Shown here: in pieces, positions 9,047 through 64,000 of the stretch
Layout of the letters: the number at the start of each line of letters is the position of its first letter
Position numbering within the stretch: position 1 is the first letter of the stretch
Assembly: GCA_900320225.1 (NCBI GenBank)
Contig: ONRL01000001.1
Coordinates: 1,325-65,324 of the forward strand
Source of the DNA: an uncultured Lentisphaerota bacterium
Lineage (GTDB): Bacteria > Verrucomicrobiota > Kiritimatiellia > RFP12 > UBA1067
Direction: 5' to 3'
DNA length: 64,000 nt
Position numbers and translations under genes: made by a program
The notes under the pieces: generated by a model
Database searches by the model: none
Seen by the model: the letters and a program-made list of their open reading frames with translations, nothing else
What the model was told of the DNA's origin: nothing

Positions 9047-9047
9047 G

Positions 9048-12434: not shown

Positions 12435-12469
12435 CCTGTTACTCCTGATTCTTCGTTCACTTGCCGCAA

Positions 12470-12594: not shown

Positions 12595-12600
12595 CGCTTC

Positions 12601-17740: not shown

Positions 17741-17743
17741 GCC

Positions 17744-34134: not shown

Positions 34135-34375
34135 AGTCACGAGAGACATGGTTAAGGCCCAGCTGAAGTCAGCAAAGACCAAGGAAGCGTTGAACGACGC
34201 CATGGTCAGCGCGATGATCGCCGTCGTGGACTGCCAGTGCAAGACGGGGATGCGAGTCAAGCGCCAGGGGCTCATCCTCGCCGGCATCGGCCTGTTACTG
34301 CTTCTGACGCTTCTGTGCGGCAACGACAGCGCGCTGAAGTTGCTGTGCTTCTGGAGATCGGGAGGGACGCCGTGA
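34127..34375 (+). CDS. small membrane protein with single C-terminal TM (holin candidate)
   Basis: GGAGGGG lies 6 nt upstream of ATG 34127. The TM segment is GLILAGIGLLLLLTLLCG. Confidence 0.4.
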   Translation: MDEVTRDMVKAQLKSAKTKEALNDAMVSAMIAVVDCQCKTGMRVKRQGLILAGIGLLLLLTLLCGNDSALKLLCFWRSGGTP

Positions 34376-35465: not shown

Positions 35466-35509
35466 CTTCCGGCAATTCCGCCGGGGAAAACAAACAGGAG
35501 TAAAAAGCA

Positions 35510-36013
35510 ATGAAGAAACTGATATTGGCGTGTGTCGTTGCCGTGGCCCTCTCGGGGTGCATGTTCATCGTCGCGGGCTGCCGTACGGTGTGCGTCGAGA
35601 ACGACAAGGAGAAAGGCTGGTCCGTGACCTGCCGCTCCAACATGATGAAGTCCGAGCTGGACAACATGAAGGCGTCCATAAATCCCGACGGGACTATCTC
35701 GTTCGAGATGGGAGGCCTCGCTTCTAGCCCGTCCGAGGAGTTCGCGAAGAGCCTGATGACGATGACATACATCGCGCGCCTTGCCGCTGCCATCGCGTCG
35801 CCAACTGCGGCCGGCGTCCCGCTCAACGAATCCGCCGCCGACCCACAGGCGATAGCTGCGATCCTTGCCGCCCAGGCCGCCGCAAAGGAAACGACGGTAA
35901 AGGCGAAGAGCGCGGCCGCCGTGAGCAAGATCGAAGCCAAGGCGAAGGCCGCGTGCCCGACCGGCACGTGCTCCGACGGAACATGTTCCGACTGCCAGGC
36001 GACGGCTAAGTAG
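35510..36013 (+). CDS. lipoprotein
   Basis: It has the lipobox VALSGC after MKKLILACVVA, an Ala-rich helical middle and a Cys-rich tail, CPTGTCSDGTCSDC. Confidence 0.55.
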   Translation: MKKLILACVVAVALSGCMFIVAGCRTVCVENDKEKGWSVTCRSNMMKSELDNMKASINPDGTISFEMGGLASSPSEEFAKSLMTMTYIARLAAAIASPTAAGVPLNESAADPQAIAAILAAQAAAKETTVKAKSAAAVSKIEAKAKAACPTGTCSDGTCSDCQATAK

Positions 36014-45169: not shown

Positions 45170-45171
45170 CG

Positions 45172-51100: not shown

Positions 51101-54100
51101 AGGAGGCAATACGGAACATTCGCGATGTTCTCGACGGCGGCAAAGACACGATAACGATGTACCGCAGCGTCCCGGCCGACGTGAAGGAGGGACAATTCCG
51201 GAACGGCGACTGGATCACGCCGAGCCGCGCCTACGCGGAGGACAACGCCCGCATCCACGGATGGGGCAAGAAGTTCCGCGTCATCGAGCAGGAAGTTTCG
51301 GTCGAAGACGTCTGGTGGGACGGCAACGACATCGCGGAATGGGGCTTCGACGACGGTAAGGGCAGCGTGTACAAGAACACGCGGGCGAACCGCAAGCTGC
51401 TCGGTCCGACCTACGACAACGCGGGCAACCTGATACCGCTCTCGAAGCGCTTCAACGACTGGCTCATGGACGCGCGCTACTCCATCGCGGGCCGTGTCGC
51501 CGCGTCGAATATGGGCATCAAGGGCGCGGGTGAGGCCGAGGCCATGGAGAAGGCTGGCAAGGATCGCGAGGAGATCTGGCGCACGACCGGATGGTGGCGC
51601 GGCACCGATGGTAAATGGCGCGTGGAGATCCCGGACTTCACGCTAAAGATGGACACGATTGGCAGGGAAGCCAACGAAAGCGACCCGGATTACTTCGTGC
51701 GCAAGCGGAAGTTGCCAGACATCATCACCGACACCCGTCTCTTTGAGGCGTACCCGGAACTGAAGAAGATCACGGTCGAGACGCCGCATCACGATACATT
51801 CGGCGGGGCCAGCGTCCTGGGTGACTACAACGGCAAGAGGCGCATCCGACTGAACACATGGGCGATGATGTACGATCCGGAACAGGTTCGCAGTACGCTC
51901 GCGCATGAGATACAGCACGCGATCCAGTACATCGAGGGTTTTGCCAAGGGCGGCAACCAAGGCCAGTTCAAGGAGGCAGACCCGTGGGCACTGCGCCGAA
52001 AGGCGAAGGCGGAGCGCAGGCGCGGCAACGAGACCGAAGCCGCACGTCTGGAAGCCGAGGCCGAGGAGATTGAGGAAAATGCGCTCGAAGGACATGTGAT
52101 CGAAAATGGCGAGGTGTACGAGGACACGTTCGAGGCTTACCAGTCGCTCGCGGGCGAGACCGAATCACGCAACGTCGAGAAGCGCCTTGCCATGACGCCG
52201 GAAGAGCGCGCGGCCACGCCCCCCTGGGCGACTGAGGACGTGCCCGCCGACCGCCAGATCGTCAGGTTCTCCCTCGTCGGCAAGCGTCCGGACGGGATCG
52301 AAGTGTTCAGCACGCGCTCCGTGGACGACATGACCAACGCTCAGCGGCGCGACGAGTTCCTACGTAAACTTAAGGAGGATTATAAGGGACGCACGGCGCG
52401 TTTCGTTGCGGACGGCAAGACCTACTATGCGACATTCGGCGATGATGATGTCGGCAAACTCGTATACGGAGACAATAAAACATCTCCTCGAAACAAGAAG
52501 GTAAAAGATCGAATCGGCGCGGCCGGTGATATATTTGATCTCGTCGAGAACTCTCGTTTCAAGGGACCTGGGAAAGAGCGCGGAAAGAAAACGGATGCTC
52601 ACAGGAACGTTGAGAGATGGGATTATTTCGTCAAGACCGTCCAGATCGACGATGGCATGTACGACGTGCGAATCGAAGTGCGGAGTAAACCCAGCAGGAC
52701 GGGTCAGTTGAAGGACGAATTCGTCTACAACGTGTTCTTGAACCACAGCAAGAAAAAAGCCGACCTTCGGTTCCTATCATGGGCAGAAGCCTTAGCAGGC
52801 GATGCCTCCGTCCGTAACGCGAACGTCACGGCTCTCAGACCCGAAAAGTCGGATGCGGAAAGTGTACCAAATCCCTCCGACGAAATCAAGGCCGATCCGG
52901 AGTCTTTTGCGCGGCGCTCGATCGTCTCGCGCGTAATCGACGGCGACGCCGAGGAACGCGAATCCGCGCTCGTGGCGTTCGTCGCCGAGCGCGCGCTCAG
53001 GCACGGCCCGAAGCCGAACGCCTTCAAGACCATCGCGCGGCTCGGGCTGGAGATGGGGCTCAAGACCGTGAACGCATCCAATATCGTCAAGAAAGGCGAG
53101 GCTCTTGCCGACCGCGTGCGCGGCACCGTCATCGAGAAGGCGATCCGCAAGGGCGACGTCGCCACGGCCACGGCCCTTCTCGCCCGCGAAAGCGACATCG
53201 ACCGTCTCGTCGCCGGCGCAGCCGGTCAGGGCGGCCAGCTCGTCCGCGCAGGCGAGGGCAAGATCAAGAGCTTCCTCGACCGCGAGATCGAAAAGCATAT
53301 CCGTTCGTTCAACGCCGCGTCGCTCGCGGACGTGGAGCGCGACACCGGCATCGACATCGCGGGCGAGATCCTGGCCAACAGCCCGGAGAGGTTTGATCCG
53401 AAGGGATCGGCGAAGCGCGAGGAAGCCAAGGCCGAAGCCGGCGAGGCTGGAGGCGAGGAAGGTGCCGTGCCCGGCGCCGGCGCGCCCGACGAGGGCAACA
53501 TCACCGACTTCGAGCGTGCCCGCCGCGAGCGCGTGCGCAAGGAGGCCGAGGAGCGCGTCGCCAAGATGATCGCCACGGCCAAGCAGCGCGCGGAAGAGGC
53601 CGAGAATCAACGCGCGGAATGGGAGGCGCAGCGCGAAGAGCGCAAGCGCCAGGCCGAAGCCGCAGCGGCGGCCGGCGAAGCCGGCGAGGCCGGCGAGGCC
53701 GGTGGCGGCGCCGGTGGTGGTGGCGAAGGCGGCGGCGTCGGTGGCGAGACCGTCACGCCGGAGCGTCCGAAACTCTCCACGTTCGCCGACTTCAAGTCGC
53801 CCGAGGAGTTCGCCGCGTTCTTCCGCGTCTGGGCCGAGGAGCGCTACAAGAAGGAACACGGCGCATCCACACTCGGCAAGCACGAGGAGAAGCGGCTCTT
53901 CCCGGAGTTCTACCGCAAGGCCGTCGTGCGCGAGCTGCAAGACCTGGCCGACAAGCTCCTGCCGCCCAAGGGCGCGCGCGCGACCGTCAACCGCTGGCTC
54001 GGCGAGATCCAGCCCGGCGTGAAGCCCGACACCCTCGAGCGCATTTCGGCCGACATCTTCAAGTACATCAACCGCAACGCGATCCGCGAGAGCCGCACGG

Positions 54101-56709
54101 CGACGATCCAGAAGTTCCGGAACGGACTCCAGGAGTTCATCAAGGGCCCGCAGTTCGACGACCTGAAGCTGGACTCCGACCGCAAGGTGACCGGCTGGGT
54201 GGAGGAGGCCGCGCGCTACATCCGGCGCGTGTGCAACCTCTCGATTCAGTCGATCAACGGCGAGCCGTCGCAGCTGGAAAAGGAGCGCGCCGAGCTCCAG
54301 GCCATTCTCGACCGCCGTTCGCAGGTGTACGACGAGGAAGGAAAGAACTCGGCCGACGCGCCGCTGTTCGACATGGAGACGCGCCGCGCGCTCGCCAAGC
54401 TCCAGCTCCTGGAGAAGTACGGCGCGATGAAACGATACATGCCCGGCCAGATCGCCGACCTCGCGAACGAGGCCATGACCTGGCTGCGCGACGAAGCTGG
54501 CAAGCTCGAGGACGCCTGGAAGAGCGCCCGCGAGACCGAGGAGTCGATCCGTTCCGCGCTCACAGGCGGCATCGTCGGCCCGAACGGGCAGAAATACCAG
54601 CGCGCCGAGGGCGTCAAGGGCTGGGCGGAACGTCTGTTCGACTCCATGAACGGCATGATCCGTCTCCGGCTCCAGCACCTCGTACGGTTCTCCGATTCCG
54701 CGAACCAGCAAAAGGCACGGGACGCCATCAACCGCGTCATCGTCATGCTCGGCGACGGCGAGGTGGCGTTCACGCGGCACACGCAGAACGACCGCAGGGC
54801 GTTCGAGCAGGCGCTCACGCGGATATTCGCCACGCCCGACGGCAAGGGCTTCGACCGCCGCGCGATGGCCGACTGGCTCAACCGCATGACCGAGGCGATC
54901 CCGGCCGACCTCTCGCGCCAGCTCTCCAAGCAGGGCTACGGCGACAGCATGACCTACGGGCAGATGCTCCAGCTGCTCGTCTCACTCGAGCAGAGATCCT
55001 ATTCCGAGGCGATTGCGGCGAACAAGCGCGAGAACCAGGCCGATCTCATCCGCACGTTCGAGACCGTCGGCCCGGACGGCCGGCGCGAGCGTGTGCTGAC
55101 CGACAAGGACATCCTCTTCATCGACTGGCTGCGCTCGTTCTACGAGGCGAAGCGCACCCAGCTGTCCGAGGTGACGAAGCGCATGACCGGCCTGCCGGTT
55201 GATTCTCCCGATCCGCTCTACTGTCCCGTGAAGATGTACATGGGCGACCGCGCGCGCGGCATGCACGTGGACGACACCAAGGCATGGGATCCGATCGGCG
55301 CCGTGTTCTCGCGCCGCGTGGAGACGCTGCGCGACTTCGACGAGTCGGCGTCCATCCTGGGCCAGTTCTTCGACCGCTCCGCAGAGGCCGCCAAGCTCGC
55401 GGCATGGGCCGAACGCGGCTCGATCATTCGCGGCGTGTTCACGAACGCGAGCGTCCAGGAGTCGATCCGGCGCGCGTTCGGCGGCGGCGAGCTCACGAAG
55501 ATCCTCAAACAGCTCGAGGAGACGTTCAACGGCGGCGAGAACATCAGGAAATCGCCCGGCGAGATCGCAGCCGCCGACAAGGCGATGAACTGGATGACCT
55601 ACCTCTCGCTCGGCTACAACCCGCTCTCAGCGATGAAGCAGACCACCTCGGTCTGGGTCTGGGCGAACGCGCTGCCGGGTGGATTCAAGGACCTCTGGCG
55701 CTACATGACCGACGTGGACATGGCCACGATCAAGCACATCAAGGAGAGCGAAGAGTACAAGGTGCGCTACGGCGTCGAGATCGGCAGCGGCCAGGACGTC
55801 GCCACGCGCGCGCTGAATGACGATCCGTCCGAGAACCCGGTCAAGAAGTTCTTCAAGAAGACCTCGATGGGATTGCTCCGGAAAGGCGACTTCCTTCCGG
55901 GTGGCTGGATTGCGCAGGGGCTCTTCCGCGACCTCTACAACCGGCACCTGAGAGAGGGCATGGATCCGCAGGCGGCCGACAAGCTCGCCATGACCGAGAC
56001 GTTCAACATGCTCGAAGAGACGCAGCAGTCGGGCCGCACGTACAACACGGCCGCACTCGCGCGCGAACACGGGCGCCTCGGACGGCTCCTGGTGCAGTTC
56101 GCCACCTCGCCGTTGCAGCAGCTCCAGTACGAGACGCAGGCCCTGCGCGAAGTGTGGGATCTCAAGCGCTACAAACCGACGACTCCTGACGCCGACTTCG
56201 AGAAGCGGTACTCAGATGCGAAAGGAAAGCTCGTGCGTGCTGCCGTGATAAACCATGTCCTGCTCCCGGCCGCGCTCCACGCCGTCACAAACCTCTACCG
56301 CTACGCGATGGGCTACGATCCGGAATGGGAACAGGAAGGCTGGCACTGGACGATGCTCCGCGACATAGTGCTCGGCCAGTTCTCGCGCGTGTTCTTTATC
56401 GGCGCGATTTCCACCGTGACATGGGACACGCTCATCACGGGCAAGCCCATGCGCGAAGTGCCGGCGCTGATTCCGGCCGAGGGCGTGGTGAAGCTCACCG
56501 GCAACATGATGGTCACGGCGCGCGACATCGCGAAGCTGGACTACGAGAAGGTGCAGAAAGACCTGGACCGGCTCTTGAAATCGACCTCGATCACGCGCAC
56601 GCCCTATGACGCCTTGCGCCTGCTCTCGGGCAGAGCCTACGCCGAGCGCGAGGAGCGCCGCGAGAAACGCCGCCAGAAAGAGGAGAAGAAAGCGGCTAAG
56701 CAGAAGTAG
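45172..56709 (+). CDS. giant polyvalent virion/ejection protein (~3845 aa)
   Basis: A single uninterrupted 11.5-kb ORF. GGAGGAG lies 6 nt upstream of ATG 45172 (the track start GTG 45166 is also possible). It contains three HExxH sites, an (A/T)P linker, a ParB-like block, an ART-like block, low-complexity tracts and hydrophobic helices. It is the last gene of the virion module. Confidence 0.85.
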   Translation: MPRPNTPTRWDAIPALTEEERVASALSVSPATATDEESRAAAQTLSRQVLIAHQIAQMPDESFKTEAEKYAAASKIVETMTGAKDLDGRLWNGGKPFKTGKEYLMSVRDVLTRGMTAAADPDLQAWLAMSDEEKDAKLEREQGFLSSLAEGVGDATSQVAAHYGINTELSESEYEAAPEDVRNASFMLSRDDTPQAERDKYGATIREWRTGEWRKLQRRSEYEAKLRRKNALLYLPDMIKSLKTDEAKTLAGELAQDPSAIPDNWEARLRRLPTHDIETLAQIRGMTREQTEGGFFNWLGDMGIGVYNAARGLVNGPYQQLEKYGAMAMGFDENLINETIRRKHALWSAYAGWSSPVAPLSDQHGAVANFTIGLASAVPFIASMKLKALGYVACAGEMMSEADAQAAAAGVDTTSLEYNAINLVAGGTYAYMLKAVSPKFFGASANGAAEEMALRTAFMKGVLSGVAKLDTVKIASQRTAAGSLMMAMQQSIAAVNNDLHLGGDAWNDAAKSFTETFVSSIPDMLAFTGYGILEGHARASGGLPKMFTAEGRANRSQNLREAVENAFAVRTAIVGNEQIDNLRKATILNQLSAMSRAWTEGGEAGLRGLGLKPAEITEAKDYFEAECKQLGAAEKLGELDSILDEQGARGEFDPYVFAERNEAARRYDELARDYSVKTDRLHKRIIEKMLDEKGTLRDIASVRNVWAQGHAVGAGMADGTDAGAAALVKAGFTPEDAAILSREFGAERRNMYSPAATEALREMYTRSTRGMVEAHAALASAFKGKVRTENGRVLIDLPMPDGGTGTLAVETEDLSQRFYGAAGKDPELARQIESIVTRLGGHVTADAWINMTDAERRRIVKEFHLQDEGYFMLTDPADPSLHVDSGDADAVMGVIRLDPTADPGVGFHESMHGFLRFCQETGFFDEADVKWLTDTYGTPQNAKEQLNEESAADGFRQYLAKRMAGSFAEEPGPFRKLFGLISRIRHLRDSRAATERLAANAEEALYDAFLAGKYQHVRDLTFAEPVAPKAETGTGTEAPQTGAPTPAPTPAPTPAPAPAPTPAPTPAPAPAPAPRVVSFEALTPTGGKKVKGHYEIVPLASLLHSNMAGYPMELQQRDRKGNKGEEQTREEHIANFEPGYLLADPKTDSGAMVVARRPGPDGKPQLVVVSGNGRTMVLEEMAKRNLYDRYRNRMKEWAKENGVENTVADADNPVLVRVVDELGGATLKELADLSNTNAIQQMNEEEQARADADLVRSLDLAKLYKPNMDGSANMAAGASDEFFREFVRATGDTSLLNSDGTFTEALRMRARRALLAIACGQGERGRDVVKKLVEDTDALGIDRQKDTAAAIAPHVAAIETRPEYAIGPDVSRAFADYIEFRENRDTGKKWGTLDEYLKQGDMLDQRSEIAEAVMRLLDDPKSAPVLAETVRLYVEAAKGETDGLFGAARTRAEIWRDAAKAVNVEAAEKRYSIAGKVAASNMGIKGAGDAEAMEKAGKDREEIWRTTGWWRGKDGRWRFELPSVKMKSEKEIEAALREGINGLRGGSSETTLEKVLDAPALFEAYPRLKKTKIVFSPEHDDKTGGWYDAGKNEIVLLDTGIKDLRHRPKHEQDLYDTYQQVINSDEFLQKRFSNMDAFGIKHGTAEEERALAKDWIAKFDKSIQDENAAIVRDLVKDRGPYSAFGKIVHEVQHSVQYMETFAKGGNPESAAEFVKNMKRKQRIWAYRLEVEETAKELGTTNPYEIERAILEKLGVTSREQIAGLEADGWIPDREGRDKGYNLFARGYDKEGYEEAYNEYLGEMRKTGRAGWWEGSPRELYNRLAGEVEARNASRREAMSPEERAATPPWETEDVPADRQIVRYSVTAQRVTPEEDAAYADAVKRGDMETVRRMEREVYERMGYSDDSSYQGTSAFNGAAPSSNAYFETKAERIEAAKNGEMEDTTTLGDFRDGIDVNNLQFIVFDPRSERNADPMRQEAIRNIRDVLDGGKDTITMYRSVPADVKEGQFRNGDWITPSRAYAEDNARIHGWGKKFRVIEQEVSVEDVWWDGNDIAEWGFDDGKGSVYKNTRANRKLLGPTYDNAGNLIPLSKRFNDWLMDARYSIAGRVAASNMGIKGAGEAEAMEKAGKDREEIWRTTGWWRGTDGKWRVEIPDFTLKMDTIGREANESDPDYFVRKRKLPDIITDTRLFEAYPELKKITVETPHHDTFGGASVLGDYNGKRRIRLNTWAMMYDPEQVRSTLAHEIQHAIQYIEGFAKGGNQGQFKEADPWALRRKAKAERRRGNETEAARLEAEAEEIEENALEGHVIENGEVYEDTFEAYQSLAGETESRNVEKRLAMTPEERAATPPWATEDVPADRQIVRFSLVGKRPDGIEVFSTRSVDDMTNAQRRDEFLRKLKEDYKGRTARFVADGKTYYATFGDDDVGKLVYGDNKTSPRNKKVKDRIGAAGDIFDLVENSRFKGPGKERGKKTDAHRNVERWDYFVKTVQIDDGMYDVRIEVRSKPSRTGQLKDEFVYNVFLNHSKKKADLRFLSWAEALAGDASVRNANVTALRPEKSDAESVPNPSDEIKADPESFARRSIVSRVIDGDAEERESALVAFVAERALRHGPKPNAFKTIARLGLEMGLKTVNASNIVKKGEALADRVRGTVIEKAIRKGDVATATALLARESDIDRLVAGAAGQGGQLVRAGEGKIKSFLDREIEKHIRSFNAASLADVERDTGIDIAGEILANSPERFDPKGSAKREEAKAEAGEAGGEEGAVPGAGAPDEGNITDFERARRERVRKEAEERVAKMIATAKQRAEEAENQRAEWEAQREERKRQAEAAAAAGEAGEAGEAGGGAGGGGEGGGVGGETVTPERPKLSTFADFKSPEEFAAFFRVWAEERYKKEHGASTLGKHEEKRLFPEFYRKAVVRELQDLADKLLPPKGARATVNRWLGEIQPGVKPDTLERISADIFKYINRNAIRESRTATIQKFRNGLQEFIKGPQFDDLKLDSDRKVTGWVEEAARYIRRVCNLSIQSINGEPSQLEKERAELQAILDRRSQVYDEEGKNSADAPLFDMETRRALAKLQLLEKYGAMKRYMPGQIADLANEAMTWLRDEAGKLEDAWKSARETEESIRSALTGGIVGPNGQKYQRAEGVKGWAERLFDSMNGMIRLRLQHLVRFSDSANQQKARDAINRVIVMLGDGEVAFTRHTQNDRRAFEQALTRIFATPDGKGFDRRAMADWLNRMTEAIPADLSRQLSKQGYGDSMTYGQMLQLLVSLEQRSYSEAIAANKRENQADLIRTFETVGPDGRRERVLTDKDILFIDWLRSFYEAKRTQLSEVTKRMTGLPVDSPDPLYCPVKMYMGDRARGMHVDDTKAWDPIGAVFSRRVETLRDFDESASILGQFFDRSAEAAKLAAWAERGSIIRGVFTNASVQESIRRAFGGGELTKILKQLEETFNGGENIRKSPGEIAAADKAMNWMTYLSLGYNPLSAMKQTTSVWVWANALPGGFKDLWRYMTDVDMATIKHIKESEEYKVRYGVEIGSGQDVATRALNDDPSENPVKKFFKKTSMGLLRKGDFLPGGWIAQGLFRDLYNRHLREGMDPQAADKLAMTETFNMLEETQQSGRTYNTAALAREHGRLGRLLVQFATSPLQQLQYETQALREVWDLKRYKPTTPDADFEKRYSDAKGKLVRAAVINHVLLPAALHAVTNLYRYAMGYDPEWEQEGWHWTMLRDIVLGQFSRVFFIGAISTVTWDTLITGKPMREVPALIPAEGVVKLTGNMMVTARDIAKLDYEKVQKDLDRLLKSTSITRTPYDALRLLSGRAYAEREERREKRRQKEEKKAAKQK
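47893..47907 (+). other. HExxH site 1 (HESMH) in giant protein
   Basis: VGFHESMHGFLRF is a zincin-like metallopeptidase motif. The surrounding fold was not verified. Confidence 0.35.
48298..48393 (+). repeat. coding low-complexity (Ala/Thr/Pro)n linker
   Basis: It encodes APTPAPTPAPTPAPAPAPTPAPTPAPAPAPAP, from the imperfect repeat unit CCGACGCCAGCGCCGACACCGGCG. Confidence 0.8.
48448..48930 (+). other. ParB/Srx-fold nuclease-like block in giant protein
   Basis: HYEIVPLASLLHSN...QQRDR...LVVVSGNGRTMVL resembles the ParB N-terminal domain pattern (conserved strand, an R-rich motif, a G-x-x-R motif). Confidence 0.35.
49579..50763 (+). repeat. intragenic duplicated module copy 1 (HEVQH metallopeptidase-like)
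   Basis: It starts RYSIAGKVAASNMGIKGAGDAEAMEKAGKDREEIWRTTGWWRG. HEVQHSVQYMETFAKGGN is at 50236.., and it ends ERAATPPWETEDVPADRQIVRYS. The DNA core 49615..49708 is 90/94 identical to 51511..51604. Confidence 0.8.
51000..51370 (+). other. ART-like block between the duplicated modules
   Basis: TMYRSVPADVKEGQFRNGDWITPSRAYAEDNARIHGWGKKFRVIEQEV aligns by eye with VVYRGSPYDPLAQEAGKGVIKPEAYFTADPEYAKRYTGNGGKVGAYYLNI in the second giant protein. This is a possible R / S-T / E ADP-ribosyltransferase-type arrangement. Confidence 0.3.
51475..52272 (+). repeat. intragenic duplicated module copy 2 (HEIQH metallopeptidase-like)
   Basis: It starts RYSIAGRVAASNMGIKGAGEAEAMEKAGKDREEIWRTTGWWRG. HEIQHAIQYIEGFAKGGN is at 51904.., and it ends ERAATPPWATEDVPADRQIVRFS. 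Confidence 0.8.
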
Positions 56710-57817
56710 ACTCCAGTGCCTGACGGATCTCCTCCGTCTTGTCGGCGTGGTCATATCGCTGCACGGTCGCGTCCTGCGTCCATCCGCCGAGCCGCTTTGC
56801 GAGGTCGTTGCTCACGCCGGCCTCGGCCAGGCGTGTCCTGAAGGTATGCCGCCAGCTGTGGAAGGTGATCGTCGGATCGTCCACGCCGGCCGCCTTCAGG
56901 ATCGCGGCGAAGGTACAGTCTTCCGGATCGCCGGGATAGACTTTCGCAAACTCCGGAAGCACATACTTCCGGCCCTTCACGAACAGACCCTTCAGCGCGT
57001 CGCGCAGCACGGCCACCATCGGAACCTCGACCTCGATGTTGTAGCCCTGAGTCTTGATCGGCTTCACGCGGATCACGCCCCTCTCGAAGTCTACTTTGCT
57101 CCATTCCAGGAACACGACGTCATGCTTCCGGAGCCCGGTCCACCGTGCGACGAGACACGCCTCATACCAATGCGGCACGGCGCTCGCCTTCGCGGCCGCC
57201 AGCACGGCCTTCTCCTGGGCGCGCGTAAACGCGGCGTGACGCTGGCCGTCGCGCACGGTCGGCCGGAGGTCCTTCCACGGATTGCGGACGCCATACAGGG
57301 CCTCGGCGGCCTTCCAGATCGTGGATAGATTCCCGATGTATTCTTTCCGGCTTTTGTCCTTCAGCTTCGCCTTGTGCTTTTTGTCCTTCGGCGAGCTCTT
57401 CTTCTTCAGGTGCTCGGCATACGCCATCGCACACTCGAACGTCACCTCCTCCACGGTCGTGACCGGGAACTCGGTTTTCGTCCACTCGATGAAATCCTCG
57501 AGGTTCTTCTTCCGCTGCTTCACGAGCCGTTCGCCCGGCTTGCGATCGCGCATCGACATGAACCGCTCATACGTCGCCCACAGCTGAGCGATCGGCAGCC
57601 CGGCTCCCTCGCGCTCCCTGGTGAAGACGGCGTCGAGAATGGATTTCAATTTCATCTCGGATATCTTGCCCTTAATCGACAGGTGCATGGACTCCTCGAT
57701 CGACCGCGCATCCTTAATGGAAGTTGTGCCGGTAGACTGGCGGATGAATTTCCCTGGTCTTTTGGGGTCACGGAATGAAACCCACCAGTATTTAGAACCG
57801 TTATTTTTGTATAGCAT
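56696..57817 (-). CDS. int: tyrosine-type site-specific integrase
   Basis: 373 aa. ARWTGLR (Arg), HSWRHTF (H-x-x-R) and QRYDH (Tyr) are in the right order and spacing. It is adjacent to attR/tRNA, and its 3' end overlaps the giant gene by 14 nt (convergent). Confidence 0.9.
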   Translation of the reverse strand: MLYKNNGSKYWWVSFRDPKRPGKFIRQSTGTTSIKDARSIEESMHLSIKGKISEMKLKSILDAVFTREREGAGLPIAQLWATYERFMSMRDRKPGERLVKQRKKNLEDFIEWTKTEFPVTTVEEVTFECAMAYAEHLKKKSSPKDKKHKAKLKDKSRKEYIGNLSTIWKAAEALYGVRNPWKDLRPTVRDGQRHAAFTRAQEKAVLAAAKASAVPHWYEACLVARWTGLRKHDVVFLEWSKVDFERGVIRVKPIKTQGYNIEVEVPMVAVLRDALKGLFVKGRKYVLPEFAKVYPGDPEDCTFAAILKAAGVDDPTITFHSWRHTFRTRLAEAGVSNDLAKRLGGWTQDATVQRYDHADKTEEIRQALESTSA

Positions 57818-57860: not shown

Positions 57861-57882
57861 TTGTATCATATTCCGTATCATA
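57861..57882 (+). repeat. candidate integrase arm-type site (P arm), tandem GTATCATA pair
   Basis: TTGTATCATATTCCGTATCATA matches 12696..12717 at 21 of 22 positions. It lies 61 bp inside attR, between int and the core. Confidence 0.55.
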
Positions 57883-57902: not shown

Positions 57903-57936
57903 CAGAAAAACGCCCATTTTCAGGGCGTTTTCCGTT
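57903..57936 (-). terminator. phage-borne rho-independent terminator downstream of the reconstituted tRNA-Arg
   Basis: On the minus strand the sequence is AAACGCCC-TGAAAAT-GGGCGTTT followed by TTCTGTTTT, beginning about 9 nt past the tRNA 3' end. The hairpin also has a T-run on the + strand, so it may act bidirectionally. Confidence 0.6.
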
Positions 57937-57942: not shown

Positions 57943-57970
57943 ATTGGTGCGACTGACTGGGATCGAACCA
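57943..57970. repeat. attR core (within intact tRNA-Arg)
   Basis: It is identical over 28 bp to 12601..12628. Confidence 0.9.
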
Positions 57971-58021
57971 GCAACCTTCGGCTTCGGAGGCCAACGCTCT
58001 ATCCAGTTGAGCTACAGTCGC
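57945..58021 (-). tRNA. tRNA-Arg (anticodon CCG), CCA encoded
   Basis: The reverse complement GCGACTGTAGCTCAACTGGATAGAGCGTTGGCCTCCGAAGCCGAAGGTTGCTGGTTCGATCCCAGTCAGTCGCACCA gives a 77-nt cloverleaf. It has acceptor GCGACTG/CAGTCGC, anticodon loop CTCCGAA (CCG) and T-arm GCTGG-TTCGATC-CCAGT. Confidence 0.92.
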
Positions 58022-58159
58022 ATTATTTCCAATGGTTTTTGATGTTTGTTGCCAATTTGATGCCAAATCGCGTCGGCCAGATACATCTCAAACCTTCCGA
58101 AAACTTGCCTTTTCCTTCGGTTGCGGAGTAGTTTACCACATTCCCTTTCGGTTTGCAAG

Positions 58160-61100
58160 TCAGTCGAAATCGCCATCCCAGCCTTCCGCCTCGACCTGCC
58201 GCTTCGCCCTTCTGTACATCTTTTCGTCATTCGACATCTTCCTGAGCGTCTTCCCGATCGGATCGAACTCGCTTCCCATCTTCGCCGCGATGCCCTGCAC
58301 CTTCTTGAACGCCAGGCCCTCGATGATCTCCGCGTCCTCCTCGGGCAATCCCAGCTCCGCTACCCTCGCCGCGAGCATCTCGCTGTAGTCGAAGTCCTCG
58401 CCTTTCGCCCTCACCGCCTCGATCACCTCGTCCGCCACGCGCTGCGCGGCCGCCCTGAGCGGCGCGCTGTCGTCCCGCCGGTACTTCTCCAGCCTCCGCG
58501 CGATCCGCTCGTTGCCGCCGTTCTGGAATGTGATGAGCCCGCTCGCCGCCGCCGACAGGAACGGTATCGAATGCAGCGCCTGGAAGATCGTCTTGCCGCC
58601 GATCGGCATGCAGCCGGCCTCGCCCTCCTCCGCTCCGCTGAGCGCCCACTGTCCCTGGTCGTCGTACGCCCCCTCGTCCTCGTCCCAGGTAGTGGCCGGC
58701 ATGACTACCTGCCCGCCCACGTCGTTCCACAGCTGCTTGCCTACCTTCGTCGCCATGTTGCCCGGATCCGCGAACCTCGACTCGAAGTCCGCCTCGCTGT
58801 ACACCGTGCGCTGCGTGAACGAGTTGTACGGGTTCCACCCGACGAGCGGGCCGATCGCGTCCTGGAACAGCGACATGAGCAGTCCCCTTCTCGTGAGGTC
58901 CGGCACCAGTCCGCTGTTCAGCACCGTGTTCTGCACCGCCTGCGAGCCCGTGTAGTTCAGGTCCGTCGGCAGCGAGAATCCCGCCTCCTCGGCGCGCTCA
59001 GACCCCAGCAGGCCGTGCGCCAGCAGGTCCACCGCCGGCATGAGCAGCCTGTCCTCGTCGCCGCGCGGCATCGAGATCGCGAGCGTGCTCCACTTGCCGT
59101 ACAACCCGACCGGCACGATGTCGTAGTTTCTCAGACGATAGTCGCTGCAGTTCGCGAGGCCGTGCGCCATGCGCCGGCCGAACCTCATCAGCCACCCGGC
59201 GTTCTTCTGCTTCTCCTCGTCGTCTCCCGCCTCCTCCCCGAGCATCTTTGCGAGGACCGCGTACCCGCCGCCCATCCACAGCACGCTCGTCGCGAGGCGC
59301 CCGGCGATCCGGCTCGCCGCCTTCGTCCACCAGGCCTTCGGATCGTAGCGCATCGCCTCCAGCGTGCGGTACGCGCCCTTCATGCCCACGTTCATGAACG
59401 GGCCGCACGCGAACTCGATGTAGTTCATCGCGCGTCCCCGGTTCTCGTACCGCGGGCTCCCGCTCATCGTCGCCACCTGGTAGGTGATCTCGTCCGCCGA
59501 CCTCGGCGCCTCCCGTCCCTGCGCGCGCGCCAGCTCCGCCTCGTGCTCCGCCGCGAGGAGCGCGATCAGCTTCACGCGCGCCTCCTCGAAGTCGTTGAAC
59601 CGCTTCACCGTCTCCGCCCGGCGCTGCATCCACCTCTTCACGCGCTTTATGCCGGTCAGCTTCGTGCCGTCTAAGTTCGTCTCCATGCCCAGCGTGCGCA
59701 TGAGCTCGTCGATGTCCGTCTTGCCGCTTTCGCCCATGATCTGCTTCCTGACGCCGGCGAAGATCGGCAGCTTCATCACGCCCCTGCACTTCTCCACGTC
59801 CTCCATGATGCGCTGCGCCTGTGCCGTCTTCCCCTGCCCGGCCAGCCGGTCCGCCTCCGCGATCCTCTGCTGCAGCAGCTTCGGGTCCTGCATCAGCTTC
59901 GCGATCCGCGTCGCCTCCGCCTCGTAGTAGATGTTCGTCTTGTCGCCGTACAGCAGGTTCATCAGGCCGTTGCGCGCGAACCTGTCCGGCAGGTGCGCCG
60001 CCGCGCGCTCCATCAGGAACGTCGCGAGGCGCGCGATCGGACGTAGGCCCACCAGCCCCGCCGCGCCCACGAACTTCCCCTCGCCCATCCAAGCGATGTT
60101 GTTCGCGTTGCTCGCCCGGTTGCGCCAGATGTTGCGCAGCGCGAAACGCGGGCTGTACTGCGTGAGTACCGCGCTGATCGCCCGGTTGATCTTCACGACC
60201 TTGCTCACGCCCTTCGCGTCGTGCTCGAACCCGTCCGCCACGACCTTCGGCATGACGAGCGTCATGCGCCTGCCGTCCTTCAGGAACGTCACGCTCCCGT
60301 ACCTGTTGCTCCCCTTCAGACGGCCGCCGCCGCCCCGGTCCTCCATCACCGCGAACCCCTCGAGCCCCAGCGTCTTCGACGCCTCCGCGAGCGAGCACGC
60401 CCAGTGGTTGCGCTGCGCGAACTCGACGATCCGCAGGTCGTTCTCGAGCGTCGCCGCGAGCGGGTCCTTCACCGCCTTGAGGCTCCCGACGAGCGGCTTC
60501 ATGAACGAGCTTCCCGACGCGCCGCTGCCCTTGAGCGCGTGCATGTCCATGAGCGCCTCGATCTCCGCGATCACCGTGCTCTCGCCCGGATGGCGCTTCA
60601 TCCAGTCCTCGCGCGCGGCCCTGTACGCCTCCACCTCCTCGGCCGTCCACGTCCGCTCGCTCCGCACGTAGCTCGCGTTCATCCGCCAGTAGCCCACGAG
60701 GTCCCGGCCAAACGCCTCCAGCACGAACTCGTTCTCGAGGATGTGCTGCTCGCGGAGCGCCTGGAATCGCTTCGCCGCCGTCTCGAGACGCGTCCAGCCG
60801 TCCGCGCCCAGACGCCCCTCCAAATCCTTCAGCACCTTGTCCGCCTCGCGCTGGTCCATGCCCAGCGCCGCGGCCTTGCCCTTCTGGTGCATGCCGTCCC
60901 GCACGCTCTTCGCGTAGAGATAGCGCCGCAGGTCGTCCAGCTGCACGCCGTCCTTCGCCACCTCGTCCATGATGTGCTCGGCGAAGTCGAGCGCGTACCT
61001 TCTGCCCTTTCCCCCTCCTCTCTGCTTTTCTAGCAGCGCCGCATTTATCTTATTCAGCTCATCCTTCACACTTCTGGCCAGCAGATCGTACTTTTCCTTT

Positions 61101-64000
61101 TCGATCTTCCCCGCCTTCTTCAGACGCTTCAGTTCCGCCAGCTTCTCGCGTACCGCGTCCGTCACCCACATGACGGCCGGGCCCTCCGTCGAGTCCAATT
61201 CCAGCAACAGTCGCGCGCGCGTGCGCTTCCACCAGTTCCCGATCGGCTTGTCCATCTCGGCCAGCAACTCCTTGATTGTCGCCTGCTGGTCTGCATCCCA
61301 CTGCCGCTCGATGTCGCGCATCACGCGCTCGTGCGGACCCTCCGCGTCGCGCGTGCGCCGGAGCGCGTTCCACGCCTCGGACAGCTTCTCGTTCCCGGCG
61401 ATCGCCTCCACCATCTTCGCGTACACCTTCGGCGCGTGCGCCTCCAGCCCCACGGGATCCGCCAGGAACATGCCGAACATCTCCGCCCACAGCTCGCTCG
61501 CCGCCACCCCTTCGCTCTTCTTTGCCGTCGGGTCCTTCCTGACGGGATCCTGCTCGCGCCACCACCTCGCGGCCTCCTGCGCCTCCTTGCCGAGCTCGCC
61601 CTTCGTGTCGCCCAGCTCCTTCGAGATGCCCATGCCGAGCTTGCGCAGGTCCTTCAGGCACTGCGGCGCGCCGGCCGTCGTCGGCAGCTCGCACGCTATG
61701 CGCCCGATTTCCTTCGCGAGGATGTTCACGGCGGTGCGGCCGCCGCCGCTCGTCTTGCCCTTGATCCTGGCCTCCGCGAGCCCCTCCATCTCCTCGGCGA
61801 GCGCCTGCTCGCTCAGCTCCTTCATGGCCTTCACTTCTTCGTAGCTGTTGTGCAGCCGCCACGACGGATCCTCGTTGAGGAACATGCCGTCCTTCTTCAG
61901 CCCGGCCTTGACCGCCTCCAGGTCGCTCTTGTCCACGATGCCGAACGCGGCCGCGTTGAGACGCAGCCTGCCGTCGCGGCCCCTGCCCGCGAGCCACGGC
62001 ATCTTCTCGAGTATCTTGGGCATGTGCGCGTTCGCCGCGAGCGCGCGGTAGAGGCGCAGTGCCTCGCTGTAGGCGAGCGTCATGCTGCCGTCCTGCGACG
62101 GCCCGGCCTGCCCTTCCCGCTCGAGATAGAGGTTCGCGCCCGCGTCGAAACCGGCCTCTGTGCGCTCGCTCCGCCCGGCCGCCACGCGCTGCCCTCCGGC
62201 GCGCACGGCCCTCAGCACGTCGTCGTACACCTCGTCCCTGCGCTTACCGCCGCGCGCGTAGCGGATGTCTGGATTTTCCGGATCGAACGTGCCGATGTTG
62301 TCCGTTGCGCTCTTGACCTGCGCCCCGCCGTCCAGCGGCACGTAGCTCACGCCTCTGTATTTCACCCCGCTTCCCGTCGGGTCTCCTCCCTCGTCATAGA
62401 CGATGCCGTCGTACTTGTCACCGAAGTTCTCGCGCAGGAACTCCCCGTCTACGATCGACGCCTCGCCCCAGTCCAGCGCGCCCGACTTTCCTTTTATGAA
62501 TTCGTGGTCCGGGAAGATGCTCTGCAAGTCCTTCAGGCATTCAGGATCCCTGATGTCGAAGGGCCTGCGGATGTTCAGGTAGTACGCGCCCACCTTTCCG
62601 CCGTTGCCCGTGTACCTCTTTGCGTATTCCGGGTCTGCCGTGAAGTATGCCTCCGGCTTGATAACGCCCTTGCCCGCCTCCTGCGCGAGCGGATCGTACG
62701 GCGATCCCCGATACACCACCAGCGGCTCGCCGTTTTCGTCTACGACTTTCGACGCGTTCGCCGGATCCTTCTTCACGTCGCCGAAGAATTCCTTGAATTG
62801 GCGCGTCTCCGTCTGGCTTGAGATTTTTGCAGCCTGCGCCTTGACCGGCGAACCGGGATCGTGTATACTATGCACCAATCCATTCACTTGCTTTCGTTTG
62901 GCATACTTTAGCCCTAGGCTTGCAAGTTGTGGATTTGCTTTGGCCAGCGAGGTGAAAACCCTGCTGGTCTTTGCATTATCCATGTAGAATACTCCGATAT
63001 CGCCCTTGCCTTCAGCCTCAATTGCCTCTTTCACAAGTCCTGTCCATGCGTTTCTGCGTCCATGTGCGCTTGTCATGACATGTGCCGTTATTTTGCCGCT
63101 GTTAATTTCTGGCTCTCCGTTTATAACTATCGGCAGAATCATGTCCCCTTCTGGCGTTGACACAGATGTGATCGCGACCACACTTGTGTCTTTGCCTTTC
63201 TTGGACCTCGACGCTATCACCATCACAGGCTTTTTCAACGCACCAGGGACCTTCTTCAAGTTGTCGCCCAGGCCGTGCATGTGCCCGCCGATATTCCAGT
63301 TCACGCCGTCCTGCTTCGTGAAGTAGCATGTCTCGATGTGGTGCTGCGTCATCATCACAGGCAACTTAACGAATCCTATTTCCTCTAATGCGCTCGGCGT
63401 CTCTCCTACAAACACATAATCGTCAGATATAAGCTTCGCGTTTCTTCCGCCAGCCCTTCTGTTCGCCACGATCTTGTCAACGGCCTTGTCGAACGGCACT
63501 TCGTAATATCGCTGATTCTTCCCTTTCTCGCTGAGTTTCGATACAGGCACCCCGCCCCTGCTGTACCTGATCTCGCCGTCTGTCCACTTGTGGTCCACGC
63601 GGATGTGCTCGTCCGAGAACGCGACGTAGTTCCAGCCCGCCGTGTCGCCGTCCTTCACGCTCTTGCCGCCGTAGGAGTCGACCGGGTACTTCACGCCGTC
63701 GATCCCCGCGCGGTAAAGGAACTCGGAGGCGGCCTGCGGAGAGCCGAGGAGTCTTGACAGGCTTTCGTATATTGCGTCTCCGCTGTTGCCGTTGTCGGTA
63801 ATGAAATGCTCCAGGTCGCCGTTGAAGCGAAGCCACCAGGCTCCTTTTAGCTTTTCGCGCAGACCTTCCTTCTCCGCCTGTGCGATCACCCTGTCCCAGT
63901 TGGCGTCGGAAATAGCGTCGTACCACTTCAGCAGGTGGCTCTCGTCGCCCTCCGCCCGGTTCGTGAAGAACGTCTGCTCGTAGAGGTTGGCTCGCGCCTC
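58160..64000 (-). CDS. second giant polyvalent-type protein (>1946 aa, N-terminus beyond window end)
   Basis: The track ORF is 58160..63889 (1909 aa), but the same frame stays open for all 37 codons up to position 64000 (EARANLYEQTFFTNRAEGDESHLLKWYDAISDANWDR then VIAQAEKEG). It contains a MuF-C-like block, an ART-like block and a long C-terminal region colinear with the prophage giant protein. Confidence 0.8.
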   Translation of the reverse strand, partial: EARANLYEQTFFTNRAEGDESHLLKWYDAISDANWDRVIAQAEKEGLREKLKGAWWLRFNGDLEHFITDNGNSGDAIYESLSRLLGSPQAASEFLYRAGIDGVKYPVDSYGGKSVKDGDTAGWNYVAFSDEHIRVDHKWTDGEIRYSRGGVPVSKLSEKGKNQRYYEVPFDKAVDKIVANRRAGGRNAKLISDDYVFVGETPSALEEIGFVKLPVMMTQHHIETCYFTKQDGVNWNIGGHMHGLGDNLKKVPGALKKPVMVIASRSKKGKDTSVVAITSVSTPEGDMILPIVINGEPEINSGKITAHVMTSAHGRRNAWTGLVKEAIEAEGKGDIGVFYMDNAKTSRVFTSLAKANPQLASLGLKYAKRKQVNGLVHSIHDPGSPVKAQAAKISSQTETRQFKEFFGDVKKDPANASKVVDENGEPLVVYRGSPYDPLAQEAGKGVIKPEAYFTADPEYAKRYTGNGGKVGAYYLNIRRPFDIRDPECLKDLQSIFPDHEFIKGKSGALDWGEASIVDGEFLRENFGDKYDGIVYDEGGDPTGSGVKYRGVSYVPLDGGAQVKSATDNIGTFDPENPDIRYARGGKRRDEVYDDVLRAVRAGGQRVAAGRSERTEAGFDAGANLYLEREGQAGPSQDGSMTLAYSEALRLYRALAANAHMPKILEKMPWLAGRGRDGRLRLNAAAFGIVDKSDLEAVKAGLKKDGMFLNEDPSWRLHNSYEEVKAMKELSEQALAEEMEGLAEARIKGKTSGGGRTAVNILAKEIGRIACELPTTAGAPQCLKDLRKLGMGISKELGDTKGELGKEAQEAARWWREQDPVRKDPTAKKSEGVAASELWAEMFGMFLADPVGLEAHAPKVYAKMVEAIAGNEKLSEAWNALRRTRDAEGPHERVMRDIERQWDADQQATIKELLAEMDKPIGNWWKRTRARLLLELDSTEGPAVMWVTDAVREKLAELKRLKKAGKIEKEKYDLLARSVKDELNKINAALLEKQRGGGKGRRYALDFAEHIMDEVAKDGVQLDDLRRYLYAKSVRDGMHQKGKAAALGMDQREADKVLKDLEGRLGADGWTRLETAAKRFQALREQHILENEFVLEAFGRDLVGYWRMNASYVRSERTWTAEEVEAYRAAREDWMKRHPGESTVIAEIEALMDMHALKGSGASGSSFMKPLVGSLKAVKDPLAATLENDLRIVEFAQRNHWACSLAEASKTLGLEGFAVMEDRGGGGRLKGSNRYGSVTFLKDGRRMTLVMPKVVADGFEHDAKGVSKVVKINRAISAVLTQYSPRFALRNIWRNRASNANNIAWMGEGKFVGAAGLVGLRPIARLATFLMERAAAHLPDRFARNGLMNLLYGDKTNIYYEAEATRIAKLMQDPKLLQQRIAEADRLAGQGKTAQAQRIMEDVEKCRGVMKLPIFAGVRKQIMGESGKTDIDELMRTLGMETNLDGTKLTGIKRVKRWMQRRAETVKRFNDFEEARVKLIALLAAEHEAELARAQGREAPRSADEITYQVATMSGSPRYENRGRAMNYIEFACGPFMNVGMKGAYRTLEAMRYDPKAWWTKAASRIAGRLATSVLWMGGGYAVLAKMLGEEAGDDEEKQKNAGWLMRFGRRMAHGLANCSDYRLRNYDIVPVGLYGKWSTLAISMPRGDEDRLLMPAVDLLAHGLLGSERAEEAGFSLPTDLNYTGSQAVQNTVLNSGLVPDLTRRGLLMSLFQDAIGPLVGWNPYNSFTQRTVYSEADFESRFADPGNMATKVGKQLWNDVGGQVVMPATTWDEDEGAYDDQGQWALSGAEEGEAGCMPIGGKTIFQALHSIPFLSAAASGLITFQNGGNERIARRLEKYRRDDSAPLRAAAQRVADEVIEAVRAKGEDFDYSEMLAARVAELGLPEEDAEIIEGLAFKKVQGIAAKMGSEFDPIGKTLRKMSNDEKMYRRAKRQVEAEGWDGDFD
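62290..62770 (-). other. ART-like (polyvalent-type ADP-ribosyltransferase-like) block
   Basis: GEPLVVYRGSPYDP...AYFTADPEYAKRY...GAYYLNIRRPFDI...YDGIVYDEGG shows a YRG / T-A-D / acidic pattern as in ART-fold modules of polyvalent and MuF proteins. Confidence 0.35.
63040..63370 (-). other. MuF C-terminal-like block (low-GC patch)
   Basis: LPVMMTQHHIETCYF...HGLGDNLKKVPGALKKPVMVIASRSKKGKDTSVVAITSV...ILPIVINGE...AHVMTSAHGRRN follows the MuF_C pattern (PL.M....I.K....H.L....L..LP..L..P..V..S......V....). Confidence 0.4.

Follow-up and report, generated by a model that had tools for sequence, protein, structure and literature searches.

The window, meaning the whole stretch of 64,000 nucleotides that was analysed, contains an intact tRNA-Arg(CCG) gene at 57945-58021 (minus strand, 77 bp), which was identified with ARAGORN. 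On one side of this gene lies prophage 1, a podovirus-like prophage of about 45.4 kb at 12603-57970 (plus strand), with matches to a primase, a large terminase, a portal, a major head protein, tail proteins and an internal virion protein. Its 26-bp att core is the tRNA 3' end (57945-57970, no strand assigned) and has a partner copy at 12603-12628; this is an exact repeat, of which none is expected by chance. Free-form contigs of prophage 1 were 45,483 bp and 90,766 bp long, and its attP form was present on contigs L005 and L006. Two further genes of prophage 1 encode a tyrosine integrase (56696-57817, minus strand), which matched phrog_1 with an E value of 3e-40 and PF00589 among precomputed Pfam hits, and giant 1, a polyvalent protein of 3847 aa (45166-56709, plus strand) with LPD23, ddrB-ParB and LPD3 domains. 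The C-terminal 1200 aa of giant 1 define a separate family with 319 cluster representatives.

On the other side of the tRNA gene, a minus-strand open reading frame occupies 58160-64000 and was translated into 1946 sense codons and a stop. No stop occurs in the 37 codons that precede the first in-frame start, and the frame is open at the window edge. As the tRNA gene is located at 57945-58021 and the stop codon at 58160-58162, 139 bp separate this gene, giant 2, from the tRNA 5' end. The database protein P0121 (3193 aa) was 100% identical to all 1946 residues of the window, which are its residues 1248-3193. Giant 2 is 3193 aa in full, and 58160-64000 holds the 3' part of its gene, codons 1248-3193 and the stop. 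The first-pass annotation had described a frame of more than 1946 aa, open at the edge and ending 139 bp from the tRNA, and translation, ARAGORN and P0121 all agreed with it. On the free-phage contig L029, the DNA of the gene was 100% identical to the window copy.

Two Pfam domains were found above their curated cut-offs in the window part of giant 2: MuF_C (PF18819, E 2.7e-9) at 63038-63265 (minus strand, aa 246-321) and the ADP-ribosyltransferase domain ART-PolyVal (PF18760, E 4.9e-14) at 62285-62740 (minus strand, aa 421-572), the latter matching profile positions 1-140 of 140. They confirm the MuF-C-like and ART-like blocks that had been noticed from the letters alone. The MuF_C domain is named PBECR by Iyer et al., who predicted it to be an RNase (PMC5512222). 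The MuF (SPP1 gp7-like) domain itself was absent from the window part, where Pfam showed only PF18819 and PF18760, and likewise from the precomputed Pfam hits of a full-length near-identical giant-2 protein. The segment at 63551-64000 (minus strand) is the C-terminal half of a widespread LPD-like polyvalent-protein module that covers P0121 residues ~1093-1397; by itself, this segment had 40-60% identity to dozens of polyvalent proteins that are otherwise unrelated, and it also matched phrog_873 weakly. Positions 58163-62209 (minus strand) encode a conserved, mostly alpha-helical C-terminal backbone of ~1350 aa, common to ~60 proteins of 3100-3400 aa.

All four att forms of a second element, phage 2, were recovered from independent contigs, and the sole sequence common to them was a core of 29 bp, which consists of AAT and nucleotides 1-26 of tRNA-Arg. 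The attR copy of this core is located in the window at 57996-58024 (minus strand). The attP form was present on L029 (39,681 bp) in the order giant 2, 363 bp, a gene for a 378-aa protein, HicA/HicB; L029 and the window were 100% identical from 64000 down to 57996, where identity ended. The attL form was present on L028 in the order host GH28, GH92, a gene for a 246-aa protein, core, 378-aa gene, HicA/HicB, followed by early genes, a Dcm-type methylase and DnaB. In the attB contigs L021, L014 and L024, the 246-aa gene lies directly upstream of the intact tRNA, and these relatives with an empty site have no giant-2 gene. The 135-bp spacer between the giant-2 stop and the core (58025-58159, minus strand) was identical in attP and attR, and absent from attB and attL. 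Contigs of the free phage-2 type were 39.1-39.7 kb long, and one contig of 224,969 bp encodes both P0414, the exact 378-aa protein, and the full-length giant P0121. An exact DNA search of IMG/VR with a 53-mer of the window and with the attP junction gave no match.

The integration anatomy of phage 2 is directly visible in these contigs, and it bears out the view that the tRNA is sandwiched between two mobile elements in opposite orientations. Very probably, 57996-64000 belongs to a second prophage of ~39.7 kb, whose left end it forms, with giant 2 and the integration as proposed here. The target is the host tRNA-Arg(CCG), and phage 2 enters its 5' end through conservative site-specific recombination. 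The phage attP brings AAT and its copy of tRNA nucleotides 1-26, and integration therefore leaves an intact tRNA beside the giant gene, with phage DNA upstream. The other junction, for which the evidence comes from other assemblies (L028 and others) and not from the window's own contig, would lie ~39.5 kb rightward, outside the window. There, a 26-nt tRNA 5' fragment, within a second core copy, would stand beside the conserved host gene (~246 aa), with the 378-aa putative integrase immediately next to the fragment. It had been stated that neither an integrase nor an att repeat of this element was visible in the window; the putative integrase is indeed outside, but one copy of the att core is inside.

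As the window comes from a metagenome-assembled genome, and repeats at tRNA genes can cause misjoins, the succession of giant 2, tRNA and prophage 1 could be an assembly chimera. However, the junction of giant 2 and tRNA was also found in two independent assemblies: L010, which comes from a different sample, runs from the C-terminus of giant 2 through the tRNA and integrase 1 into giant 1 at 99.9% identity, and L003 carries giant 2 and the tRNA without prophage 1. We regard a chimera as hardly credible.

The observations support the identification of element 2 as a temperate tailed phage. Seven genes upstream of giant 2 (L025) were syntenic with prophage-1 genes at 31865-35995, with identities of 30-89%, and genes for a head scaffold and an SU10-type major capsid protein lie upstream of the giant in a relative with 83-86% giant identity. 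In the lineage with 99-100% identity, the virion genes read were tail-region homologues, scaffold and capsid genes being read only in the 83-86% relative. The search rightward for virion genes, an integrase and an att site, which was made on other contigs, returned tail-region homologues, the putative integrase and a copy of the core. It is highly improbable that element 2 is non-viral, whether integrative conjugative or of another type, or that the giant is a chromosomal gene that was domesticated and has kept its place. Polyvalent proteins do occur on conjugative elements as well (PMC5512222), and no terminase or portal gene was present among the genes read of the phage-2 lineage. However, the called genes of L025, L028, L029 and L039 (~30 kb of the element) included no relaxase or type IV secretion genes, and the homologues of scaffold, capsid and tail genes, the free-form contigs and the empty attB sites all speak for a phage.

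Phage 2 and prophage 1 are related phages that have 7 tail-region and 2 early genes in common, and each encodes a giant of the polyvalent class as the last gene of its late operon; giant 2 follows the tail-region genes on L025. The common class and place of the giants fit the claim of the first-pass annotation that the giants are paralogues, with C-terminal regions that looked colinear by eye and would derive from a common giant effector gene. Moreover, the BFVD matches of both long, alpha-helical C-terminal regions are C-terminal pieces of phage polyvalent proteins. However, alignment of the two giants did not uphold the claim. The best BLASTP E value between them was 1.5, and giant 1 scored negative with profile HMMs for the giant-2 family, which were built from 61 C-terminal and 18 N-terminal backbones. 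HHalign of the giant-1 C-terminal profile (103 sequences) with the giant-2 profile (61 sequences) gave a probability of 0.6%, and the motifs that had been quoted as colinear were not paired. The giant-2 HMM found no member among 149 giant-1-type representatives, and the BFVD top-50 Foldseek lists of the two C-terminal AlphaFold models had no accession in common. In the close giant-2 relative P0002, an LPD23 cassette was 58% identical to part of giant 1, but this shared piece is a mobile central cassette and not backbone. Common descent of the two giants is therefore improbable. The two giants belong to distinct C-terminal backbone families, and related giants exchange central effector cassettes. 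Just before the giants, the tail and internal-virion genes of the two phages also differ; those upstream of giant 2 had no match in Pfam, PHROGs or NCBIfam.

The layout of giant 2 consists of an N-terminal backbone of ~1090 aa, a central cassette and the C-terminal backbone. Among its relatives, both backbones are conserved and only the centre varies; in phage 2 the cassette comprises the LPD module, the MuF_C/PBECR predicted RNase and ART-PolyVal. Neither backbone is covered by Pfam, has a relative in the PDB or gave a tblastn match in GenBank phages. The AlphaFold2 model of the C-terminal backbone (pLDDT 72.6) gave no Foldseek match below E 0.1 in the PDB. In BFVD, it matched C-terminal pieces of phage polyvalent giants with E values down to 1e-21, and the fold recurs at the C-terminus of many such giants, some of which carry a lytic transglycosylase domain. 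A scan of IMG/VR with the single giant-2 protein gave no match, and with a narrower alignment of the family, one viral genome was found to encode a relative.

Giant 2 is a polyvalent protein by definition, as it combines at least two biochemically disparate effector domains in one polypeptide and is encoded by a phage among late virion genes. The polyvalent proteins described by Iyer, Burroughs, Anand, de Souza and Aravind in 2017 (PMC5512222) likewise unite several unrelated effector domains in one giant polypeptide, as giant 2 does with ART-PolyVal, MuF_C/PBECR and the LPD module, are encoded among late virion genes and shuffle domain cassettes between proteins. In contrast to these, giant 2 has a defined scaffold of ~3200 aa in which ~1090 N-terminal and ~1350 C-terminal residues are constant and only the centre is exchanged. 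Phage 2 is thus a temperate phage that carries a polyvalent giant protein, a kind already known. A three-part giant virion protein with proportions like those of giant 2 is also known from coliphage N4. Its virion RNA polymerase gp50 has an N-terminal part of ~1000 aa for injection, a central activity and a C-terminal part of ~1400 aa needed for encapsidation (PMC5512222). The likeness is an analogy only: the centre of giant 2 is ART and PBECR, not an RNA polymerase, and a PDB search gave no sequence or fold match between gp50 and giant 2.

Giant 2 is predicted to be packaged into the virion and to be injected along with the phage DNA. Packaging and ejection would be the role of the backbones, and the cassette would act on host targets early in infection. 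It is also possible, if unlikely, that giant 2 is prophage cargo, such as a moron or a gene that the lysogen expresses for defence or exclusion, and not a packaged protein that is injected. Its place at the very end of the prophage beside att is a usual one for cargo, and its ART and predicted RNase domains are toxin-like. However, in relatives with att elsewhere (L011, L013, L012), the gene also lies directly behind a conserved protein of ~250-300 aa and is co-oriented with the structural genes, and the conservation of both backbones around a variable centre also argues against cargo, as does the injection proposed for phage polyvalent proteins (PMC5512222). In the giants of these rumen Kiritimatiellae phages, the scaffolds at both termini stay constant around an effector centre that can be exchanged. 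C-terminal scaffolds of at least two unrelated families occur widely in phages, without known function or solved structure, and they allow a direct test of the packaging and delivery of large effector proteins.

The gene for the 378-aa protein adjoined an att site in every context examined, and starts ~200 bp past the end of the core in both attP and attL. In its family, R235, K262, Y327-x-x-R330 and Y361 were invariant in 28 members, with Asp352 at the His/Trp position. The second Arg and the Tyr are 31 residues apart, a spacing that, by our own comparison, is that of lambda Int. The protein had no significant match in Pfam, NCBIfam, PHROGs or PDB sequences (the PDB being searched with family profiles), and PF00589 was the commonest weak Pfam match in the family (4 of 28 members, best E 0.002). 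HHalign of the family with the prophage-1 integrase paired the expected Arg and Lys motifs at an E value of 0.42, which is not significant. Judged from these residues and its position, the 378-aa protein is a putative, very divergent tyrosine integrase. Prophage finders that need a called integrase or a 3' tRNA fragment would miss phage 2.

In the canonical mode, which Williams reportedly set out in 2002, tyrosine integrases direct integration to tRNA 3' ends. Prophage 1 fits this mode exactly, with its integrase beside the intact tRNA and a core that equals the tRNA 3' end. The attP of phage 2 also carries a tRNA segment, so the tRNA gene is restored. However, this is the 5' segment, and the prophage lies upstream of the restored tRNA; its putative integrase comes to lie at the distal junction, away from the intact tRNA, and everything that precedes the tRNA has to come from the phage. 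A precedent for 5'-end integration is the pelagiphage HTVC028P, a temperate podovirus whose 40-bp attP core is the 5' end of the host tRNA-Asn (PMC8477408). Phage 2 differs from it in host phylum, tRNA and integrase, and here another prophage occupies the 3' end of the same tRNA gene.

It is unusual for one tRNA gene to be used at both ends. The 5' 26 nt of tRNA-Arg belong to the phage-2 core and the 3' 26 nt are the prophage-1 core, so that a 77-bp gene is flanked by two prophages; the middle 25 nt (57971-57995) are in neither core. This provides a base-precise worked example of one tRNA gene that serves two phages as attB, one at each end. We tentatively suggest, with rather more doubt than confidence, that the 378-aa protein is the founding member of a tyrosine integrase clade that is dedicated to tRNA 5' segments and undetected by current family models. 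Together with a 3'-end integrase, it may let two related Kiritimatiellae phages share the tRNA gene, both flanks of which would be supplied by phages in the double lysogen. By the same proposal, co-resident giants built on two unrelated scaffolds of ~1300 aa would exchange effector cassettes, and the scaffolds would serve phage polyvalent proteins in general as a module for packaging and ejection.

A phage-encoded tRNA into which prophage 1 had inserted was considered and rejected, because attP has no more than 26 nt of the tRNA, and the full tRNA stands beside the host 246-aa gene at the empty sites. No remnant of a neighbouring tRNA was seen in the 139-bp interval, where the spacer is phage DNA with the same sequence in attP. 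In attL, a simple scan found no terminator after the tRNA fragment, and a hairpin followed by a T-run at this place therefore remains a reading by eye. A simple scan of the spacer at 58025-58159 likewise found no sigma-70-like site or tRNA promoter; by eye, TTGCAA-17-TGgTAAACT in the spacer weakly resembles a promoter.

On the minus strand at 58160-64000, translation gave a frame (giant 2) in which 1946 sense codons precede a stop, and the 37 codons preceding its first in-frame start were stop-free. ARAGORN placed tRNA-Arg(ccg) at 57945-58021, also on the minus strand, so that giant 2 lies upstream of the tRNA and its end is 139 bp from the tRNA 5' end. The codon counts and this distance are as the first-pass annotation had them. 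Its MuF-C-like and ART-like blocks were also recovered by Pfam as MuF_C at aa 246-321 (E 2.7e-9) and ART-PolyVal at aa 421-572 (E 4.9e-14) of the window fragment, both above the curated cut-offs. A homologue search retrieved P0001, a protein of 3203 aa and 99% identity. A member of its 90% cluster, the 3193-aa protein P0121 from a 224,969-bp NCBI contig, contained the entire window fragment as residues 1248-3193 at 100% identity, indicating that about 3.7 kb of the gene lies past the window edge.

The proposed second mobile element beside the tRNA was anchored by its attachment sites. Two contigs, L029 and L028, were obtained by locus look-up of P0414, a 378-aa protein on record for the same 224,969-bp parent contig. 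L029 (39,681 bp) carries giant 2 (3193 aa), 363 bp, the 378-aa gene and HicA/HicB in this order and is the free, attP form of phage 2. In L028, a 111.6-kb scaffold, the host genes GH28, GH92 and one of 246 aa precede the 378-aa gene and HicA/HicB, and DUF3592, early genes, a cytosine methylase and DnaB come next; it is the far, attL junction. Alignment of the four att forms revealed one common sequence of 29 bp, AATGCGACTGTAGCTCAACTGGATAGAGC, which consists of AAT plus tRNA nucleotides 1-26, and the flanks of this core were swapped among the four forms precisely as conservative recombination predicts. L029 and the window were 100% identical from 64000 down to 57996, the last core base, and diverged from there. 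Taken together, the core and this point of divergence show that phage 2 integrates in the 5' end of tRNA-Arg. The 3' end of a tRNA gene is the usual case. Temperate tailed phages that encode a polyvalent giant protein are a known kind of element, to which phage 2 belongs, and pelagiphage HTVC028P is a precedent for integration at a tRNA 5' end (PMC8477408).

The 3' end of the same tRNA-Arg gene is occupied by prophage 1 (12603-57970), and it is notable that a single tRNA gene serves both phages, one per end. In this double lysogen the two att cores together cover the tRNA gene except for its central 25 nt. Upstream of the tRNA the DNA belongs to phage 2, and the terminator-like hairpin on its downstream side (57905-57933) comes from prophage 1. 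The 246-aa gene was directly upstream of tRNA-Arg in 9 of the 11 metagenome contigs with the identical tRNA and was absent from the window. Its product, about 246 aa long, has a signal peptide and a C-terminal end reading ...IMDNQVPFLPIFNCYF; this conserved gene was found beside the tRNA in L014-L021 and L024 and at 9008-9748 of L028; its copies next to tRNA-Arg(CCG) in diverse contigs were 48-100% identical. The identical 77-nt tRNA-Arg(CCG) itself occurs amid otherwise unrelated flanks.

A protein of about 380-440 aa without a family match, of which P0414 is a homologue, adjoined the host junction in L011, L013 and L001 and was located downstream of the giant in L004. The 378-aa protein (L004 copy) and its family gave no significant match in Pfam, NCBIfam or PDB sequences. 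Residues R235, K262, Y327-E-L-R330 and Y361 were invariant in 28 family members, and their order and spacing, including a 31-residue spacing between the second Arg and the Tyr, would fit a tyrosine-recombinase active site, with Asp at the position of the usual His/Trp. When the 28 members were scanned singly against Pfam, the family matched by most was Phage_integrase (4 members, best E 0.002), and one member matched Phage_int_SAM_5. Based on these residues, the weak Pfam matches and the constant place beside att, the 378-aa protein is quite probably a divergent tyrosine integrase, and it is notable that current family models miss this putative integrase family. Immediately past the 26-nt tRNA fragment, L029 (9802-9870) and likewise L028 after the core contain an inverted repeat, GCAGAGGT...ACCTCTGC, then a T-rich run; a promoter-like TTGACT-17-TAAACT lies between these and the 378-aa gene. 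A simple terminator scan gave no call on the repeat, which could keep transcription of the truncated tRNA from running on into the putative integrase gene.

In contig L003 (99.5% identical), giant 2 and the tRNA are present with the same spacer between them, and the sequence past the tRNA 3' end is different, so giant 2 is independent of prophage 1. The sequence at L003 14050-14119 (70 bp past the tRNA 3' end) differs from both prophage 1 and the native flank of the window, and an ORF starting there reads MNVLAIGCHPDDVEIA; this flank may represent either a third element at the tRNA 3' site or a different host arrangement. The possibility that the junction of giant 2, tRNA and prophage 1 is an assembly chimera was ruled out by L010, a contig from another sample that spans the giant-2 end, tRNA, integrase 1 and giant 1 at 99.9% identity.

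The capsid genes and far junction of phage 2 are known from sister assemblies and not from the window's own contig. In L004/L039 (39,113 bp), a relative with giant backbones 83-86% identical, the genes farther upstream of the giant include one for a head scaffold (phrog_8865) and one for a major capsid protein of the SU10 type (PF17236). L025, reached by an upstream walk via the 780-aa gene neighbouring giant 2, contained seven consecutive genes syntenic with prophage-1 genes at 31865-35995 (protein identity 30-89%). These were followed by genes of 133, 280, 780, 142, 425 and 265 aa, none with a prophage-1 counterpart, and then the giant. Among distant relatives, the giant was the last gene before host DNA in L012, and in L011 and L013 a repressor-like HTH gene came after it, with toxin-antitoxin genes, early genes and DnaB next. 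Phage-2 early genes at L028 16266-16619 and 18001-18546 were 35-40% identical to prophage-1 early genes (window 17120-18073). The two early and seven tail-region genes in common indicate that phage 2 and prophage 1 are mosaic relatives.

BLASTP of P0121 against 120 homologues divided giant 2 into four regions: an N-terminal backbone (1 to about 1090) conserved in the family; a widespread module (1093-1397) that recurs, at 40-60% identity, in many polyvalent proteins that otherwise differ; a central effector cassette with MuF_C and ART (1410-1830); and a C-terminal backbone (about 1845-3193), also conserved in the family. Both backbones were common to about 60 proteins of 3100-3400 aa, whose centres varied among LPD23, ParB, LPD3 and MuF_C/ART, and this scaffold-plus-cassette design is notable. 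L002, from another Kiritimatiellae MAG, encodes at 5400-10989 a shorter polyvalent protein without the giant-2 backbones, adjoining HicB, a DNA methyltransferase and a DUF262/HNH gene. Its MuF_C/ART block was 78% identical to that of giant 2, so the cassette travels in other protein contexts too. The domain meanings and the idea of packaging and injection of such polyvalent proteins follow Iyer et al. 2017 (PMC5512222), where N4 gp50 is described as a protein whose N-terminal region serves injection, whose centre is catalytic and whose C-terminal region serves encapsidation. The backbone-cassette-backbone layout of giant 2 resembles that of gp50 by analogy only, and we infer that giant 2 is packaged in the virion and injected.

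The first-pass annotation regarded giant 2 as a paralogue of giant 1 (45166-56709, plus strand, 3847 aa), with colinear C-termini, and this was not supported. BLASTP between the two gave a best E of 1.5, and giant-2 backbone HMMs scored negative on giant 1 (filters off, database size one). HHalign of 103 giant-1 C-terminal sequences against 61 giant-2 backbones gave a probability of 0.6%, leaving unaligned the motif pairs quoted as evidence (3480 and 3618 in giant 1, 2526 and 2757 in giant 2). The C-terminal 1200 aa of giant 1 formed a family of their own, with 319 representatives, always C-terminal, in proteins of 2000-6500 aa. The giant-2 HMM matched 0 of 149 giant-1-type representatives, and of the first 120 hits, which had entered the retrieval solely by shared cassettes, 11 were recognised by the giant-1 HMM as its own type. 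The AlphaFold2 model of the last 1190 aa of giant 2 (pLDDT 72.6, pTM 0.68) was nearly all helical and had no match in PDB. At E <= 0.001 it had 56 matches in BFVD (best 1e-21); among those listed, nearly all represented the final segment of a giant phage ORF, many were named large polyvalent protein-associated, two had a lytic transglycosylase domain, and sources included Ralstonia phage Alix, Cellulophaga phages and Arthronema virus. The giant-1 C-terminus model (pLDDT 75.5) had 74 BFVD matches at the same threshold, including C-terminal pieces of phage polyvalent giants, and the two top-50 lists had zero accessions in common. We conclude that giants 1 and 2 are two distinct scaffold families with the same use. 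Cassettes are what the two lineages have in common: in P0002, a giant-2 relative, an LPD23 segment was 58% identical to giant 1 at 49579-50409.

Ordinary cellular genes (S15 peptidase, MiaB/RimO-type radical SAM enzyme, SpoU methylase, TetR regulator) occupied 1-12600, and the nearest relatives among GTDB genomes were Kiritimatiellae MAGs from sheep gut. Prophage 1 had matches to primase, large terminase, portal, major head, tail and internal virion protein, with a tyrosine integrase at 56696-57817. It was found as a free genome in rumen assemblies, on L005 and L006; one contig has 45,483 bp and another 90,766 bp, and the larger, at close to two unit lengths, has the integrase linked to the early genes across attP. 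Direct repeats inside giant 1 at 49578-49753/51474-51649 and 50623-50763/52132-52272 (83% and 76% identity, spacing 1.5-1.9 kb) would fit a duplicated LPD23-containing cassette, Pfam giving two LPD23 stretches. At the left end of prophage 1, GAGGTGGTACACACC occurred in three exact copies (13086-13100, 13514-13528 and 13560-13574; chance expectation none), possibly operators or sites bound by a regulator, close to the lysogeny-control region. TTGTATCATATTC(T/C)GTATCATA at 12696-12717 and 57861-57882, one copy per side of the prophage-1 att core within phage DNA, is a candidate arm-type integrase binding site. The 23-nt motif ACAGCAAGCGTACGACAGCAAGT, with four copies (91-100% identity) at 14625, 16777, 18314 and 23660 in the early region, may be a repeated regulatory element.
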